From a virus, in the IMG/VR virus record IMGVR_UViG_3300012668_000094, positions 1 through 45,915 of that record: DNA of 45,915 nt; one strand, given 5' to 3'. Shown piece after piece: positions 9,448-45,433 of this stretch. Made by a program: the position numbers and the translations under genes. The notes under the pieces are model-generated. The model was not told the origin of the DNA. It made no database searches and was given only the letters and a program-made list of their open reading frames with translations. Position 1 is the first letter of the stretch. Each line of letters starts with the position of its first letter.

Positions 9448-9460
9448 TGGTATGGTTGCA
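9448..9460 (+). promoter_or_regulatory. extended -10 promoter-like motif TGGTATGGTTGCA
   Basis: TGnTATGGT + TGCA, pointing away from the late genes into a terminator-bounded segment. Confidence 0.5.
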
Positions 9461-9462
9461 TC

Positions 9463-9750
9463 AACGGGAAAGCGACGGCTGACCCGGAGTGTGGCTGAAC
9501 GTCTGGTACTGCTGGATCGACCGGACAAGGCTCATGCGGTGTGCAGGACCCTCTAGGCCGATTCGGTGAAGGGGGGCATGAGGACTAGCAATCCGATTGG
9601 CATACACCTTGCGGTGAACGCATGGACGGCTATAGGAGTACCTCAAACCCGAGAAAACTCCAGCTAGGCCGTGGTGGTAAAGACCAATCCACCCACTCAC
9701 ACAGACCCCCGTTAGCTGGGCCTTGGCCCTCAGCGGGGGTCTTGTGTTAT
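9463..9750 (+). ncRNA. ~285-nt putative non-coding RNA antisense to the late operon
   Basis: Bounded by the motif at 9448 and an intrinsic terminator (GACCCCCG 9704-11 / CGGGGGTC 9734-41 + TTGTGTT). Lower GC and no credible ORF. Confidence 0.5.
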
Positions 9751-9757
9751 GGTTGCT
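9745..9757 (+). promoter_or_regulatory. promoter-like motif TGTTATGGTTGCT
   Basis: Immediately after the terminator. It would drive an RNA antisense to the 21-aa ORF. Confidence 0.35.
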
Positions 9758-26261: not shown

Positions 26262-26725
26262 TGGGAGGGAGGTGGAGCTCTGTCGTCGAGCTCCACCGAC
26301 CGACTGGAGGGGGTCTAGGAGCCTGGGGCTTCTGGGCCCCAGCTCCTGGCAAGAGCGAAGGCGACCGGTCTTTCGGTCGCTCAGGCTGGAGCCTTCGCTC
26401 CCTCTGTAAGGGGGTTCACTATGTATTAGCCCCGAGAAGGGTCCCTTTCCCCGTCCAACGGCCAAAGTATTTTTTGAGCCTCTGGAAACATGCAGGTCAG
26501 AGCGATATGCCCGGATCCTGTTCCTACCAAAATTTTCAGAGGGACCTTAGCGTTCGAGCGCAGCGAGGACGCTAACAACGGGGGGTCAAGATGCCTGCCT
26601 CGCCCTCGACGGCACCCCCCGGGGGGGGTGTGACAGCCTGCCTCACCCTCTCGCCCAGCACGGGAGGAGTACGTCCCAACGATGGCAAGACAATGCACGT
26701 TGTAATGCAATAGGTAATGCAATAG

Positions 26726-39530: not shown

Positions 39531-39651
39531 CGTCATCACCCCAGGTGTCAAGAGCGTCGTCAATCATGTAGTTGATCTCCTTGACGGCTTCCCAGATGCA
39601 GTAGCGAAGGTTGATGTAGGTGTCGAGAGCCCAGCCGATGAGGAACCTCAT
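39523..39651 (-). CDS. 42-aa small protein
   Basis: TAATG overlap with the helicase stop. MRFLIGWALDTYINLRYCIWEAVKEINYMIDDALDTWGDDDE. Confidence 0.4.
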   Translation of the reverse strand: MRFLIGWALDTYINLRYCIWEAVKEINYMIDDALDTWGDDDE

Positions 39652-40391
39652 TACGCACGGCTCCAGTGCAGGGAGTCCTCGTCGAGGCGGAACCACTCGG
39701 CGGTCATGCCGCTCTTGTCGCTCTTGCCGAACCGGTCCTTGACCACAGCGACCGGGCGACGGACGCCATGGTCGGAGGTGGTGAGGATCAGCGCCGGCTT
39801 CTGGCTGACCTTGCCGACGATGGCCTTGCGCGGAGGACAGGGAAGCTCCTTGATCCGGTCGTCCTCGGTGGTGTGGTGGAGCACCACGGTGGCCGAGTCG
39901 GTGGCCCGGGCCATCTGGACTAAGGCCTTCATGGCACGCCGTTGCGTGCCCCACTCATCCTCGGACTGCCCCTCCACGTCGGTGAGGTTGTCGACGATCA
40001 CGAAGTCCGGGGCCTTGCCCCAGAGCTCCCAGAAGGCCTGGATCTCATCGTCGATGGAGTCGTAGGTCAGGTCATCCTCGAAGGACCAGAAGAGATTGTT
40101 CATCTGCTCCATGGCTCCCACTGCCCAGGGGTCCTCGGCCTCGAGGAGCCGCTCTGCCTCAACGGCAGAGACACCACTCATCCACATGGCCAGCGAACGG
40201 CTGGCCTGCCCGAGCTCGGCTGAGTCGGCGGAGAAGTAGATACCCCGCAGGTCGTGGCGAATCCACCCGAGCGCCATCCATAGAGCCATCAGGCTCTTGC
40301 CGGCCCCCGGCTGGCCGGCGATGAGGGTGACCTCAGAGCGCCGGCAGGACGGGATGCCGAGCAGGACAGACGGCAACGGCTTGCCGCCCAT
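39651..40391 (-). CDS. RecA-fold replicative helicase/ATPase (DnaB C-terminal / AAA_25-like)
   Basis: Walker A LIAGQPGAGKS, Walker B FVIVDNLTD. Start set to ATG 40391 to avoid a 127-nt overlap; start uncertain. Confidence 0.7.
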   Translation of the reverse strand: MGGKPLPSVLLGIPSCRRSEVTLIAGQPGAGKSLMALWMALGWIRHDLRGIYFSADSAELGQASRSLAMWMSGVSAVEAERLLEAEDPWAVGAMEQMNNLFWSFEDDLTYDSIDDEIQAFWELWGKAPDFVIVDNLTDVEGQSEDEWGTQRRAMKALVQMARATDSATVVLHHTTEDDRIKELPCPPRKAIVGKVSQKPALILTTSDHGVRRPVAVVKDRFGKSDKSGMTAEWFRLDEDSLHWSRA

Positions 40392-40423
40392 GGAGCGGCT
40401 ACGCACCGCCCTCGAGAGGCGCT

Positions 40424-40726
40424 TCAATGCCTTGCCCGGTCGATCAGCTCGAAGCCGAAGAAGTTGCTCTCGGTTCGATAGCCCCCCCCACACTGCGGAC
40501 AGTGAAACGCCGGGGTGTGGGCGATTAGGTTGAGGTACATCTCCTTGCACTCACTGCACAGGAGGCGGTGGTGGCCGCACCTCTTGAGACCAATCCACCG
40601 GGCCGGGTCGGAGTGGTCCTTGATCTTCTCGGGCCAGATCCTCGGCCCGTCGCAGGGCAGGTCGAAGCCAAAGTCCTCATCGAGGACGACACGCTCATCC
40701 TCCAGGAGACCGACGTCCTGGTGCAT
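40424..40726 (-). CDS. zinc-ribbon protein (100 aa)
   Basis: CGHHRLLCSEC...HCPQCGG. Confidence 0.5.
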   Translation of the reverse strand: MHQDVGLLEDERVVLDEDFGFDLPCDGPRIWPEKIKDHSDPARWIGLKRCGHHRLLCSECKEMYLNLIAHTPAFHCPQCGGGYRTESNFFGFELIDRARH

Positions 40727-41119: not shown

Positions 41120-41358
41120 TGGAACAGCTCCCTGATCTTGTCGGCCTTGGCCCTATTGGCGGTCTTGGTGCGGAAGGCCTCGTCGCGCACCTCGCGGAGG
41201 CGCATGACCTCCACTTCCGCTTCGGTGACGACCTCACCGGCCACCTCGGCAGCCCCCTCGAGTCGCTGAGCTGCGACCTCGAAGATGTCCAGGGCGCCCT
41301 GCGCCTGGGTGTTGGCCACCAAGAGGCGACCCTCGAGCGTCTTCTTCCGGTTCCTCAC
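41116..41358 (-). CDS. coiled-coil protein (80 aa)
   Basis: GTGA overlap. Confidence 0.5.
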   Translation of the reverse strand: MRNRKKTLEGRLLVANTQAQGALDIFEVAAQRLEGAAEVAGEVVTEAEVEVMRLREVRDEAFRTKTANRAKADKIRELFQ

Positions 41359-42233
41359 TGCTTGTCTCCTTCGTTGTGTGTCAGGGTTGCATCTGGTTTA
41401 CGAAAAAATGGGGTCCCGCCCATCGCAACGCAAAAACGCGCCACGCCGCAGGCGCTCTTGCAGAGGTTCCCGGGGACGGCCAGGAAGAGCTGCTGGTCTC
41501 TGATCTCACGGGCCTTCCAGGCCTGCTCCCACAGCCACTCCTCGGTGAAGACACTGAGGTCGAACCACTCAGGCACTCCCCCGCTACGGGCCTTCCAGAA
41601 GCCAGCCCACCGGGGCTGCACCTCGAAGGTGCCGAGCACTCCCAGGGCGTTGTACGCCATCTGGCGGGGCCATGCGTCGGTGTGGCTGCCGGTCTTGAGG
41701 TCGACGATGTAGAGCTCGCCGGCGTCGTTGACGTACACCCGGTCGATAATGGAGCGGATCTGGAGGTCCTCCGGGCCATAGGCCCAGACCTCAACCTCGA
41801 CGGCCGGCTTGAGCTCGCCGTCCTCGTCGGGGTACTCCCAGATCTTGAGGCCGCAGTTGTCTCGCCACATGATCCACTGCTTGATGAACTCGGGGCCCTT
41901 GAGGGACCACCACTCAGGGGTCTCCTTCTCGGGCCAGTCCTTGCTGGCGCGACCGGAGCGGTAATACTCGGACGGCTCGTACTGGGGACTGCGCTCCACG
42001 GCCTCGTCGTAGCACTCCTGCCAGACGATGGACCAGAGCTCGTTGATCCCTCGCTCGTCACCCAGGTCGATCATCTCGGTGACCCTGTGGACGGTGCTGC
42101 CACCGATCCCGGCCCACATGGGCCGTTCGGGAGCACCTTCGACACGAGTCAGGCGGTACTGCTCACCACAGGTAGTGAGGCTCGAGATCTGCGACGGGCT
42201 GAGGTAGGTCGGCGGGATCCAGTCGGGGTTCAC
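41355..42233 (-). CDS. Cas4/RecB-like PD-(D/E)xK exonuclease with Cys cluster
   Basis: ...SPSQISSLTTCGEQY..., ...IVDLKTGS..., ...QMAYNALG..., C-terminal CKSACGVARFC. Start moved to GTG 42233 (GTGA overlap). Confidence 0.65.
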   Translation of the reverse strand: MNPDWIPPTYLSPSQISSLTTCGEQYRLTRVEGAPERPMWAGIGGSTVHRVTEMIDLGDERGINELWSIVWQECYDEAVERSPQYEPSEYYRSGRASKDWPEKETPEWWSLKGPEFIKQWIMWRDNCGLKIWEYPDEDGELKPAVEVEVWAYGPEDLQIRSIIDRVYVNDAGELYIVDLKTGSHTDAWPRQMAYNALGVLGTFEVQPRWAGFWKARSGGVPEWFDLSVFTEEWLWEQAWKAREIRDQQLFLAVPGNLCKSACGVARFCVAMGGTPFFRKPDATLTHNEGDKQ

Positions 42234-42466
42234 AGGAGACCACTGAGGGTCTCGAGAGGGAGGGGCGCGGAGGCGACCAGGATCGGGGCGTAGCGGAAGA
42301 TCTGCGAGGAGTTGATGACGTTCACGTCCACCGTGACCAATCCCCACCCTTTGGGTGGTCTATGTAGGCGTTCGTCGAGATCCGAGATCTCGAGGTAGCC
42401 CTCCTCGGATGTCTCAAACCAGACCCCGCTCCAGCAGGGAACTTCACAGCCGTGTGAACATGCCAT
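42230..42466 (-). CDS. first gene of the replication operon (78 aa, N-terminal Cys cluster)
   Basis: ATG with GGGGG RBS. About 85-nt leader from the motif at 42559. Confidence 0.45.
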   Translation of the reverse strand: MACSHGCEVPCWSGVWFETSEEGYLEISDLDERLHRPPKGWGLVTVDVNVINSSQIFRYAPILVASAPLPLETLSGLL

Positions 42467-42558
42467 TTTCGATTACCCCCAAAGCTTCCCCGGGTTGTCA
42501 GAGGAAGGTTGATCCGTACCTCCGTCTGGGTCTAGGACGGGGGTTGTGGTGCCGATGA

Positions 42559-42571
42559 TGCAACCATGTCA
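42559..42571 (-). promoter_or_regulatory. promoter-like motif TGACATGGTTGCA driving the replication operon
   Basis: Minus-strand copy directly after terminator 42574-94. Confidence 0.55.
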
Positions 42572-42573
42572 CA

Positions 42574-42844
42574 TAAAACGCCTTCGCGCAAGGCCCAACA
42601 TCTCACATCGACACTATTTTGCCTAGCATTTGCCCAACTTTGCTGGTAGTGGACTGTTCCACCACTCTCGGGGGGAGGGGCCATCAACTTCTGCACCGAA
42701 GGAAAGAAGTTGAGGGGAGGGGGGCTATCGCCCCTACCAACGGCCGAAGGGCCGGCCCCTTGTGGGGAGCCGGCCCTAGCGGTGGAGCGGAGAGAGCGGA
42801 TGGGGGGTCTCGCTCGCTTCGCTCGCTCTCAGAGTGTAACCACA
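42574..42844 (-). ncRNA. ~270-nt putative ncRNA with three C-rich tracts
   Basis: Bounded by the motif at 42847-59 and terminator GCCTT-CGCGC-AAGGC + GTTTT (42574-94). The RNA has CCCCTCCCCCC, CCCCCCTCCCC and CCCCCC tracts plus several perfect hairpins. Confidence 0.45.
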
Positions 42845-42846
42845 CA

Positions 42847-42859
42847 TGCAACCCTGACG
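42847..42859 (-). promoter_or_regulatory. promoter-like motif CGTCAGGGTTGCA
   Basis: Minus-strand copy 11 nt after the regulator stop codon. Confidence 0.45.
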
Positions 42860-42869
42860 CAAGCCCTCT

Positions 42870-43313
42870 TCACGAAATTCTTTTCTCGGGGTCCCGGACG
42901 ACCGGGACATCCGGGATGTCCGGCTCGCCCTTGATGTAGAAGAAGCCCTTCTCGGTGTCGGGGTAGTAGACCACCACGGCCCCGGCCTGCTGGAGCTGGG
43001 CCAACCAGGAGTCCAGCCGCTGGTCGGACTCGGCGCTGTTGGCGATGTCCTTGCGCCGGCGCCCCAGGAGTCGGAGCATCCGGGCCGCGTAGTGCGTCTG
43101 GTGCTCCTCCTTGATCGTCCAGGGGAGCTCGTCGACGTACTTCTTGGCGACCGATGCTTCGCCGGCGCGGAAGAGCGCGGCGGACACCGTACTTCGGCTG
43201 ACGGGGTACCCGGTGCGGCGCGTCACCTCGTCAGCGATCTGCTGATGGGTCAAGCCTCGGTCGACCATCTGACGCAAGTCAGAGGTGGGGGGCAGGATGC
43301 GTGCTGGGGACAT
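42870..43313 (-). CDS. HTH DNA-binding regulator (repressor/switch candidate)
   Basis: 147 aa from ATG 43313. LTHQQIADEVTRRTGYPVSRSTVSAAL is HTH-like. Divergent from the integrase operon. Confidence 0.55.
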   Translation of the reverse strand: MSPARILPPTSDLRQMVDRGLTHQQIADEVTRRTGYPVSRSTVSAALFRAGEASVAKKYVDELPWTIKEEHQTHYAARMLRLLGRRRKDIANSAESDQRLDSWLAQLQQAGAVVVYYPDTEKGFFYIKGEPDIPDVPVVRDPEKRIS

Positions 43314-44239: not shown

Positions 44240-44418
44240 AGACCTGGAGCGTCGGACCCCCCAACCCGAGGGGGGATCTCTATACCGACGAGACCCCGGT
44301 CCCCAAGCCAACGGAAGAGGAGCGGGCCTTGGCCGTTAGGCGCGTGATGCGGCTCGCGGAACCGGGTCTCGTCGACGAGGTACTGGAGATGCTGGGGCTG
44401 ACCGATGCTTCTCAGTGA
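44236..44418 (+). CDS. hypothetical protein (60 aa)
   Basis: GTGA overlap. Directly upstream of int (excisionase-position gene, no motif). Confidence 0.45.
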   Translation: MKTWSVGPPNPRGDLYTDETPVPKPTEEERALAVRRVMRLAEPGLVDEVLEMLGLTDASQ

Positions 44419-45433
44419 CGCCGTGCAGGCCTTCTGCCACGACCGGCGATCCAAGGGGATCGCGCCGGCGACCAGGAAGAACGAGTCCCAGGTCCTGCGG
44501 CTCTTCCTGGCAGACGTCGGCAACATCCAGGTCCGGCAGCTGCGACCGCAGCACGCGGACACCTTCTGGGGGAACCGATCAGGCTGGGCCCCCGGGACCC
44601 TCAACCGGGCCCGTCACACCCTGAGCACCTTCTTCTCCTGGTGCCGCGACCGCGGCTACATGGGGCGGGACGGTGACCCCCTGGCCGGCACTCGAGGATT
44701 CAAGGTCCCGACCCGCTCGAGGATCATCATTCCCCAGGGCCAATTCGAGTCGGTGCTCGAGGGGCGGTCGACCCCTCGCTCCCGGATCACCTTCGCCATC
44801 GGGCTCTACATGTTCCTGCGGATCTCGGAGACCGAGGGCCTGCGGTGGCAGGACATCGACCTCGAGGGGGGGGTGGCCGAGGTCTTCCGACAGAAGACGG
44901 GGACCATCGACATGCTGCCCATCTGCGAGGAGCTGGTGCTCGAGCTCAAGCGCTGGCGACTGACGTACGCGGCCGAGCTCGGAGAGCAACCCCGACCGGA
45001 GTGGTTCGTGGTTCCGGGCTCAACCCCTCCGCGGGGCCAGGGCGTGAAGGGCACGAAGGGCTTCGGGGTACACAGCGAAAGACACTTCCTTCCCACAAAG
45101 AGGGCATATCTCGCAAAGGTCATTGCCAGAGGGCTGCGAGAGGCGGGATACTATATGCCCTATGAGGGAGGACACACGCTGAGACGCTCGGGGGCTACGG
45201 CGCTGTACAACCAGCTCACTCATGTTGGCCATGACCGGGCCATTAGGATCTGTCAAGCCATGCTCGGGCACGCATCTGTTCGGACCACTGAGGTCTACCT
45301 GCGACTCGATCTTGACCGCAAGGTGAGGAACGATCTACTCGCCGGCAGGCCCATGTTCCCCATGCGGACCGAGGGTGTTGTCCTGCACCTGGAAAGGGAG
45401 ATAAGTGGTACGCAAGACGGTCGAGTTGTATGA
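44405..45433 (+). CDS. int: tyrosine integrase
   Basis: 342 aa. ...LRISETEGLRWQDI..., HTLRRSGATALY, LGHASVRTTEVYL (R..HxxR..Y catalytic set). Confidence 0.9.
   Translation: MLLSDAVQAFCHDRRSKGIAPATRKNESQVLRLFLADVGNIQVRQLRPQHADTFWGNRSGWAPGTLNRARHTLSTFFSWCRDRGYMGRDGDPLAGTRGFKVPTRSRIIIPQGQFESVLEGRSTPRSRITFAIGLYMFLRISETEGLRWQDIDLEGGVAEVFRQKTGTIDMLPICEELVLELKRWRLTYAAELGEQPRPEWFVVPGSTPPRGQGVKGTKGFGVHSERHFLPTKRAYLAKVIARGLREAGYYMPYEGGHTLRRSGATALYNQLTHVGHDRAIRICQAMLGHASVRTTEVYLRLDLDRKVRNDLLAGRPMFPMRTEGVVLHLEREISGTQDGRVV

Follow-up and report, generated by a model that had tools for sequence, protein, structure and literature searches.

The early-leader RNAs of lambdoid phages include the nut sites, which work together with N, and the put RNAs of HK022. 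In L5, D29 and StarStuff the early lytic promoter Pleft drives an abundant, stable and processed non-coding RNA of about 500 nt, and about 90% of the transcripts terminate upstream of the early genes (PMC5712189). Cluster A mycobacteriophages carry stoperators, described as asymmetric repressor sites of 13 bp that are scattered across the genome (PMC9283540, PMC6550527). The 6C RNAs have C-rich stretches that pair with G-rich, often ribosome-binding, sequences without a chaperone (PMC6486639).

Here we describe a gap of about 400 bases between the repressor gene and the early lytic operon of an uncultivated phage, IMGVR_UViG_3300012668_000094, a complete virus record of 45,915 bp with terminal repeats, which was analysed at its full length and is called the window below. 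The genome has a GC content of about 64%, its portal protein shares 44% identity with the portals of Streptomyces phages including Manuel and Immanuel3, and the phage is a temperate actinophage. Repressor gene, gap and early operon follow one another co-directionally on the minus strand. We tentatively favour, at a little less than an even chance, the view that this gap forms a non-coding transcription unit of its own on the repressor side of the immunity/early region. The features of the locus, in the order in which the minus strand would be read after the integrase gene, are as follows.

44405-45433, strand opposite to the repressor gene: tyrosine integrase gene, past the repressor, where a nuclease gene is also found
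42870-43268, minus strand: immunity-repressor-like gene (phrog_3929 'transcriptional repressor', E 2.6e-20)
42847-42859, minus strand: P1, a copy of the 13-nt motif with a -10-like hexamer at 42851-42856, 10 nt past the repressor stop codon
42833-42838, minus strand: second -10-like hexamer, TACACT, with a TTG-type -35 at 42857-42862, 18 nt upstream
42784-42824, minus strand: hairpin 1, with a C/A-rich loop and, as 5' arm, a tandem 9-mer invariant in all relatives
42748-42777, minus strand: hairpin 2, a GC-rich stem on a self-complementary octamer (arms 42748-42759 and 42766-42777)
42721-42734, minus strand: hairpin 3, formed by a G-run and the initial Cs of the C tract 42714-42724
42670-42724, minus strand: core module, consisting of the C tract 42714-42724, hairpin 4 (42681-42716) and the C tract 42670-42680
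42644-42664, minus strand: variable hairpin, not conserved
42612-42623, minus strand: A-rich tract, found in every close relative, some 20-30 nt before the P2 -35
42574-42594, minus strand: 5-bp hairpin (42580-42594) and T-run (42574-42579), containing the P2 -35 hexamer
42556-42571, minus strand: P2, the early-operon promoter, with a motif copy at 42559-42571 and a -10-like hexamer at 42563-42568
42230-42466, minus strand: first early gene, 78 aa, immediately beyond the gap
41355-42347, minus strand: PD-(D/E)XK exonuclease gene, in the early operon after the 78-aa gene
39651-40550, minus strand: DnaB-like helicase gene, in the early operon downstream of the exonuclease

The elements that the first-pass annotation had listed (the motif at 42847-42859, hairpins, C tracts, T-run and the second motif at 42559-42571) are all found where it had placed them. 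Its location of the unit on the minus strand between regulator and replication operon also holds, with the repressor gene upstream and the exonuclease/helicase operon downstream; an L5 gp49-like protein is encoded among these early genes as well. Annotated immunity repressors of Streptomyces phages share 32-36% identity with the repressor. Its reading frame in the longest form extends to 43379 and gives 169 aa, while the recorded product has 132 aa and starts at 43268; relatives are 129-147 aa long, and the 132-aa form is probably the true one.

The stretch 42467-42869 is non-coding. It has no third-position GC signal and holds only short open reading frames of poor composition, its GC content is 60%, and the genes flanking it have a GC3 of 0.80-0.85 (0.85 for the repressor gene). 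Public metagenomes contain more than 270 relatives of the repressor, and homologues of 65-91% identity number roughly 100. Among the contigs retrieved through these relatives, every one with enough flanking sequence shows the same layout: integrase and then, further on, repressor, a non-coding stretch of 325-490 nt, a small ORF and a PD-(D/E)XK exonuclease. Homologous gaps were found in five metagenomic contigs (L045, L056, L059, L060 and L229) whose repressors are 80-89% identical, so that the comparisons below rest on five to six related sequences. These close relatives share a series of ordered blocks on the repressor-sense strand, that is, on the minus strand of the window: a TACACT-type hexamer, hairpin 1, hairpin 2, optional extra hairpins, hairpin 3, a C tract, hairpin 4, a second C tract, the A-tract and a promoter-like block with the 13-nt motif. 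Since the spacing between blocks varies by one to tens of bases, there is no reading frame that they could share.

More distant relatives, with repressors 63-73% identical, have unrelated sequence in the gap and an equal density of palindromes. In three of them very long palindromes take the place of the module (L046 3439-3660, L048 3439-3620 and L052 3500-3640), the nested arms in L048 adding up to about 65 bp; they comprise GC-only palindromes and flanking AT-rich TAGT-type repeats with stops in all frames, and could possibly be an origin, an RNase III substrate or the target of a phage Lsr2-like protein. A blastn comparison (word size 11) of 42400-42950 with 50,697 phage records returned no match, and IMG/VR pattern scans for the G-tract architecture and for the hairpin 4 loop gave unrelated matches only. 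Repressor searches found only 47-48% identical relatives with non-homologous gaps in IMG/VR, none in genome_contigs and two distant loci in metagenome_contigs; an exonuclease search in IMG/VR found no relatives.

The 13-nt motif occurs 17 times in the genome with at most two mismatches, against 1.8 copies expected, and none of 100 shuffled sequences reached 17. Its best interpretation is as the core element of a class of phage promoters, and it would comprise an extended -10, a discriminator and the start region. At P2 all six sequences keep the same layout: a TTG-type -35 (42586-42591 in the window), a spacer of exactly 17 nt, TGn, and a -10-like hexamer of CAnGGT type. Transcription would start near 42556. 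In L060 and L045 an ATG lies 7 nt beyond the hexamer, and in L060 it opens a homologue of the first early gene (71% identity over the 51 residues of the shared part), which would thus be leaderless behind P2. In the window the relatives' ATG is replaced by ATC, an in-frame TAA precedes the present ATG by two codons, and a separate G-rich ribosome-binding site serves the present ATG. The gene's 5' leader (42467-42556, minus strand) is a decayed N-terminal coding stretch with a frame that can still be read, which is the remnant expected from a leaderless first gene behind P2. The A-rich tract upstream resembles an UP element.

The layout of P2 and the leaderless starts in the relatives together fix the direction of the motif as the minus strand, as had been assumed beforehand. 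We also considered the motif in reverse (TGCAACC on the coding strand), which would imply a plus-strand RNA, and rejected it on the same two grounds. Two further claims of the earlier annotation are borne out here: that the unit is non-coding and headed by a minus-strand promoter-type motif, given the lack of a coding signal and the support for the motif direction at P2, and that another promoter motif directly follows it, this being P2 with its invariant layout. Its claim of the same architecture at 9448-9757 fails, as the motif there lies on the opposite strand and the sequences are unrelated. Motif copies inside operons (7626, 9448, 9745, 30579 and 41379) all five point against the local genes, which fits antisense or non-coding promoters, or orientation-dependent repressor sites of the stoperator type. 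Elsewhere in the genome, 34062-34691 (minus strand) encodes a sigma-factor-like protein (phrog_354, E 1.6e-13), which might be the reader of this unusual CAnGGT-type promoter class.

At the head of the unit the picture is more varied. The P1 motif is at the same position in L056 and absent from L059, L060 and L229, i.e. from three of the five relatives. L056 and L229 share the neighbouring hexamer TACACT unchanged, whereas L059 has TACGCT and L060 a degenerate form, so that TACACT or TACGCT stands ahead of the first conserved block in four of five sequences, with block conservation starting 3-4 nt past it. A promoter-headed minus-strand non-coding unit of about 270 nt is therefore plausible, and we infer that P1 fires.

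The hairpins differ in how they are conserved. None of the 13 pairs of hairpin 1 covaries, and one is broken without compensation in two of five sequences; with its invariant 5' arm, this element looks more like a recognised sequence than a structure. The stem of hairpin 2 is likewise invariant and without covariation, its C-rich loop varies in length and sequence, and only two or three U follow directly. Hairpin 3 is present in all relatives, with stems of 5-8 bp. Hairpin 4, whose inverted repeat arms lie at 42681-42692 and 42705-42716, occurs with three stem versions among the relatives, including one T-A to C-G exchange and a wholly different stem in L229, around a loop with 7 invariant bases. 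Among the elements of the unit only this one has structural support, a covarying stem under a conserved loop.

Folding of the single sequence is unremarkable, with z-scores against shuffles of -1.8 for the minus and -2.1 for the plus strand. The opposite (plus) strand folds better by 6-20 kcal/mol in all five sequences; G-U pairs number 26 of 400 against 37 of 399, favouring neither strand, and wobble tallies do not favour one either. Fold energy and G-U counts thus carry no strand signal, and the assignment of the strand comes from the promoters. A covariance model of hairpins 1 and 2 retrieves only the close clade, with marginal matches elsewhere at E>0.002. One marginal match lies in the window itself, at 26310-26405 on the minus strand (25 bits, E 0.011), in a hairpin-dense region upstream of the terminase gene, and is probably mere GC-hairpin likeness.

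The arm of hairpin 1 (42805-42829) contains a 20-nt tandem 9-mer that is also a mirror repeat and is found exactly in more than 120 bacterial and archaeal loci (those named in our analysis are L111, L120, L129, L136, L090, L095, L138; L112-L165; L142, L191). In Solirubrobacterales the 20-mer is the conserved centre of a loop of about 45 nt closed by a stem of 20-25 bp that differs between species, and in several genomes this element lies just upstream of an apparent hemB. In Ilumatobacteraceae it is part of an intergenic repeat, with about 20 exact or near-exact matches in one genome, and an Acidobacteriota MAG has a multi-copy element with 31 nt in common with the phage, bases before the arm included. 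An Rfam scan of nine of the loci with the 20-mer, all from outside the Ilumatobacteraceae, matched no family.

On the minus strand C tracts are present at 42670-42680, 42714-42724 and 42802-42807. The last of these, a run of six Cs in the loop of hairpin 1, is kept in two of five sequences, while the two tracts of the core module are kept in five of six. The first Cs of 42714-42724 lie in the stem of hairpin 3 in nearly all sequences, so what is conserved as single-stranded is a CCUCC-type stretch on each side of hairpin 4. The coordinates given earlier for the C tracts were right, but one tract is partly in a conserved stem, and the conserved tracts lie outside loops. Nor do C6-bearing loops serve as a 6C hallmark here, as the run in hairpin 1 is so poorly kept and the loop of hairpin 2 is C-rich in a variable way. 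Searches with Rfam models at the gathering threshold gave no match in the window, in the relatives L056, L059 and L060 or in the host loci, and cmscan of 42350-43000 (651 nt) at E<=10 gave eight weak matches, none to 6C; the best, Scr3920, reached 24 bits against a cut-off of 88. The unit from P1 to P2 measures about 250-270 nt, roughly three times the length of 6C (<100 nt), and an RNA of 6C size, about 90 nt, would arise only if hairpin 2 terminated.

An anti-Shine-Dalgarno role, the other proposal of the first-pass annotation, found no support when targets were searched, as the C tracts pair with gene starts no better than with random windows. Mean duplex energies of the two C tracts were -7.1 and -8.7 kcal/mol against 40 start regions, taken from an approximate list of starts, and -7.6 and -10.0 kcal/mol against random windows of the genome. 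Antisense targets of the tracts in the phage genome were limited to chance-level 11-mers.

A terminator had been proposed at 42574-42594, and here the evidence is divided. The hairpin at 42580-42594 is the only terminator-like site that a terminator scan found in the gap, and it is followed by a U-run; a strong terminator conserved among the relatives is not supported. Hairpins of 4-6 bp in shifting registers occur in four of six sequences and are absent from two, and a real U-run follows only in the window, the relatives' tails having two U.

Putting these features together, we propose that P1 and the adjacent TACACT hexamer start an untranslated minus-strand RNA of about 250-270 nt, beginning near 42844 or near 42826. 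The RNA would fold into a row of hairpins in which two conserved single-stranded CCUCC-type tracts flank hairpin 4 with its covarying stem and conserved loop, and would run to the weak hairpin and U-stretch that overlap the P2 -35; part of the transcripts would probably read through into the early operon. The exposed C-rich core is the most likely working part and could pair with G-rich RNA or load Rho. The strand, the 3' end and the function are what we infer from the arrangement just described. Against an RNA unit speak the lack of covariation in hairpins 1 and 2, the missing P1 motif in most relatives, the weak fold score, the better folding of the opposite strand, and a 3' hairpin that is weak, changes register and in relatives has few U behind it. 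Since P2 lies behind the unit, the unit is dispensable as a leader.

The best surviving alternative, which we rate as rather unlikely, is that the gap insulates transcription and its RNA has no function of its own. A lysogen reads the repressor gene co-directionally with the lytic genes behind it, and the gap would therefore exist to stop this transcript from entering them. Hairpins 1-3 would be intrinsic terminators poor in U and stabilisers of the 3' end, and the C-rich, G-poor core would be a Rho-loading (rut) site. The composition agrees with this: a 78-nt sense-strand window with C/G of 2.3-3.5, a Rho-loading type of composition, covers the core in L056, L059, L060 and L229, and C-rich windows recur in the distant relatives L047 and L052. 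In the phage described here, however, the best C/G stretch lies downstream of P2 and not on the core. The different and equally hairpin-dense gaps of distant relatives are what one would expect if any strong structure sufficed. L059 and L060 bear on the question in two ways. Lacking the P1 motif, they have instead a hairpin behind the repressor stop codon, followed in L060 by a T-run, as an insulator would have it; yet this separate hairpin already stands upstream of the conserved block, so that the conserved module is not simply the repressor terminator. Insulation also leaves unexplained the invariant 20-nt arm of hairpin 1, the loop of hairpin 4 and the -10-like hexamer before the first block. 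If the gap is only an insulator, it is ordinary.

Two other views are each improbable in our estimate, and to the same degree. According to the first, the phage carries a repressor-controlled sRNA of a new family that does in trans what 6C does for the host. At the onset of lytic growth its two exposed CCUCC-type tracts, kept apart by a conserved hairpin, would pair with host or phage mRNAs at G-rich leaders or ribosome-binding sites, or alternatively would soak up a host factor; the invariant 20-nt 5' arm of hairpin 1 matches a repeat that is multi-copy in some actinobacterial genomes. According to the second, the gap works as DNA and not as RNA. Two same-orientation 16-nt repeats bracket it at a distance of 288 bp (309 bp in L056), and the two motif copies they represent could be cooperating or looping repressor operators, with a roadblock behind the repressor gene, except that at P2 the motif acts like a promoter. 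A replication origin is another option, with iterons formed by the palindromes and by the 5' arm of hairpin 1, which consists of two perfect 9-mer repeats in tandem, has a partial copy in inverted orientation and is invariant without covariation; replication genes follow immediately downstream, and the distant relatives have long palindromes and AT-rich repeats at this place. An AT-rich unwinding region and a multi-copy iteron array are both absent, though, at a GC content of 60%, and the cumulative GC skew has no turning point at the gap. Finally, four G-runs of 4-6 on the plus (template) strand with a hairpin-forming central spacer, conserved in relatives, could fold into a G-quadruplex that has a hairpin as its loop and impedes RNA polymerase. 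The lack of a strand signal in the pairing statistics also counts in favour of a DNA-level site.

That the attP of the tyrosine integrase lies in the gap, as had been offered as an alternative, is very improbable. The gap is non-coding and rich in repeats, no attP was located elsewhere (nothing recognisable beside int, no tRNA or tRNA-like piece), and many bacterial genomes contain exact copies of the 20-nt arm of hairpin 1; but 1.5 kb separate the gap from int, a stretch that holds the repressor and nuclease genes, and the bacterial matches are a low-complexity repeat of 20-31 nt that is multi-copy in some genomes and not associated with tRNAs. A portal search in about 800 genomes gave two distant prophages (portal identity 44-45%), neither of which has a repressor homologue next to its portal gene, so that no prophage junction could be read either way, and comparison of the int flanks, the genome-end region and the gap with seven actinobacterial genomes gave no meaningful matches. 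A true 6C (B11) sRNA captured by the phage, suggested at first sight by the C-rich loops on hairpins 1 and 2 and the C-rich single-stranded tracts, has a negligible chance, since the covariance-model search rules out family membership, the unit is too long and the C6 of hairpin 1 is not conserved.

What we favour, then, is the separate non-coding transcription unit behind the repressor gene, and its nearest counterparts can be compared with it in turn. With 6C (RF01066; PMC6486639) the unit shares a high-GC Gram-positive setting and C-rich unpaired stretches, which in 6C are proposed as the working part, and some functional likeness is reasonable for this reason though family membership fails. 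It differs in matching no 6C model, in length (about 270 nt against less than 100 nt), in tracts that flank a hairpin instead of occupying loops, and in being phage-borne and set in an immunity region.

The resemblance to stoperators concerns the motif: asymmetric, 13 nt, present in about 15 copies and mostly in short gaps, with two copies bracketing the unit and one of these directly behind the repressor gene. In contrast to stoperators, the motif is laid out like the core of a promoter, its hexamer being followed after 7 nt by leaderless starts in relatives, and the repressor of this phage belongs to another family.

As in the lambdoid nut and put systems, a structured RNA would stand behind a repressor-controlled early promoter and ahead of terminators, and hairpin 4, with its conserved loop and variable stem, recalls the boxB and put stems. 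There is no match to these in sequence or model, and in contrast to the lambdoid leaders the second promoter after the unit makes control of read-through unnecessary.

The Pleft RNA of L5 and D29 is comparable in several respects. Both systems belong to temperate actinobacteriophages in which the repressor is read in the same direction as the early genes, both have hundreds of non-coding bases between an early promoter of the repressor region and the first early gene, and both are hairpin-rich with incomplete termination before the early genes, as far as this can be predicted for the present unit. No sequence similarity links the gap to that RNA or to the Cluster A right-end region (blastn against phage records), and the unit described here comes straight after the repressor gene and has a second promoter behind it. 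That the L5/D29 RNA is expressed, abundant and toxic has been shown (PMC5712189), while the RNA of the present unit is predicted. The comparative work gives a usable working model of the promoters of this phage group, a 13-nt core with leaderless first genes, which helps to annotate the other motif-headed non-coding units of the same genome. Should the unit be transcribed, this widespread group of soil actinophages, known without cultivation, would possess an RNA family not yet catalogued, and the poorly understood habit of temperate actinophages of making a large non-coding RNA at the lysogeny/lytic switch would have a second, independent example beside the Pleft RNA.
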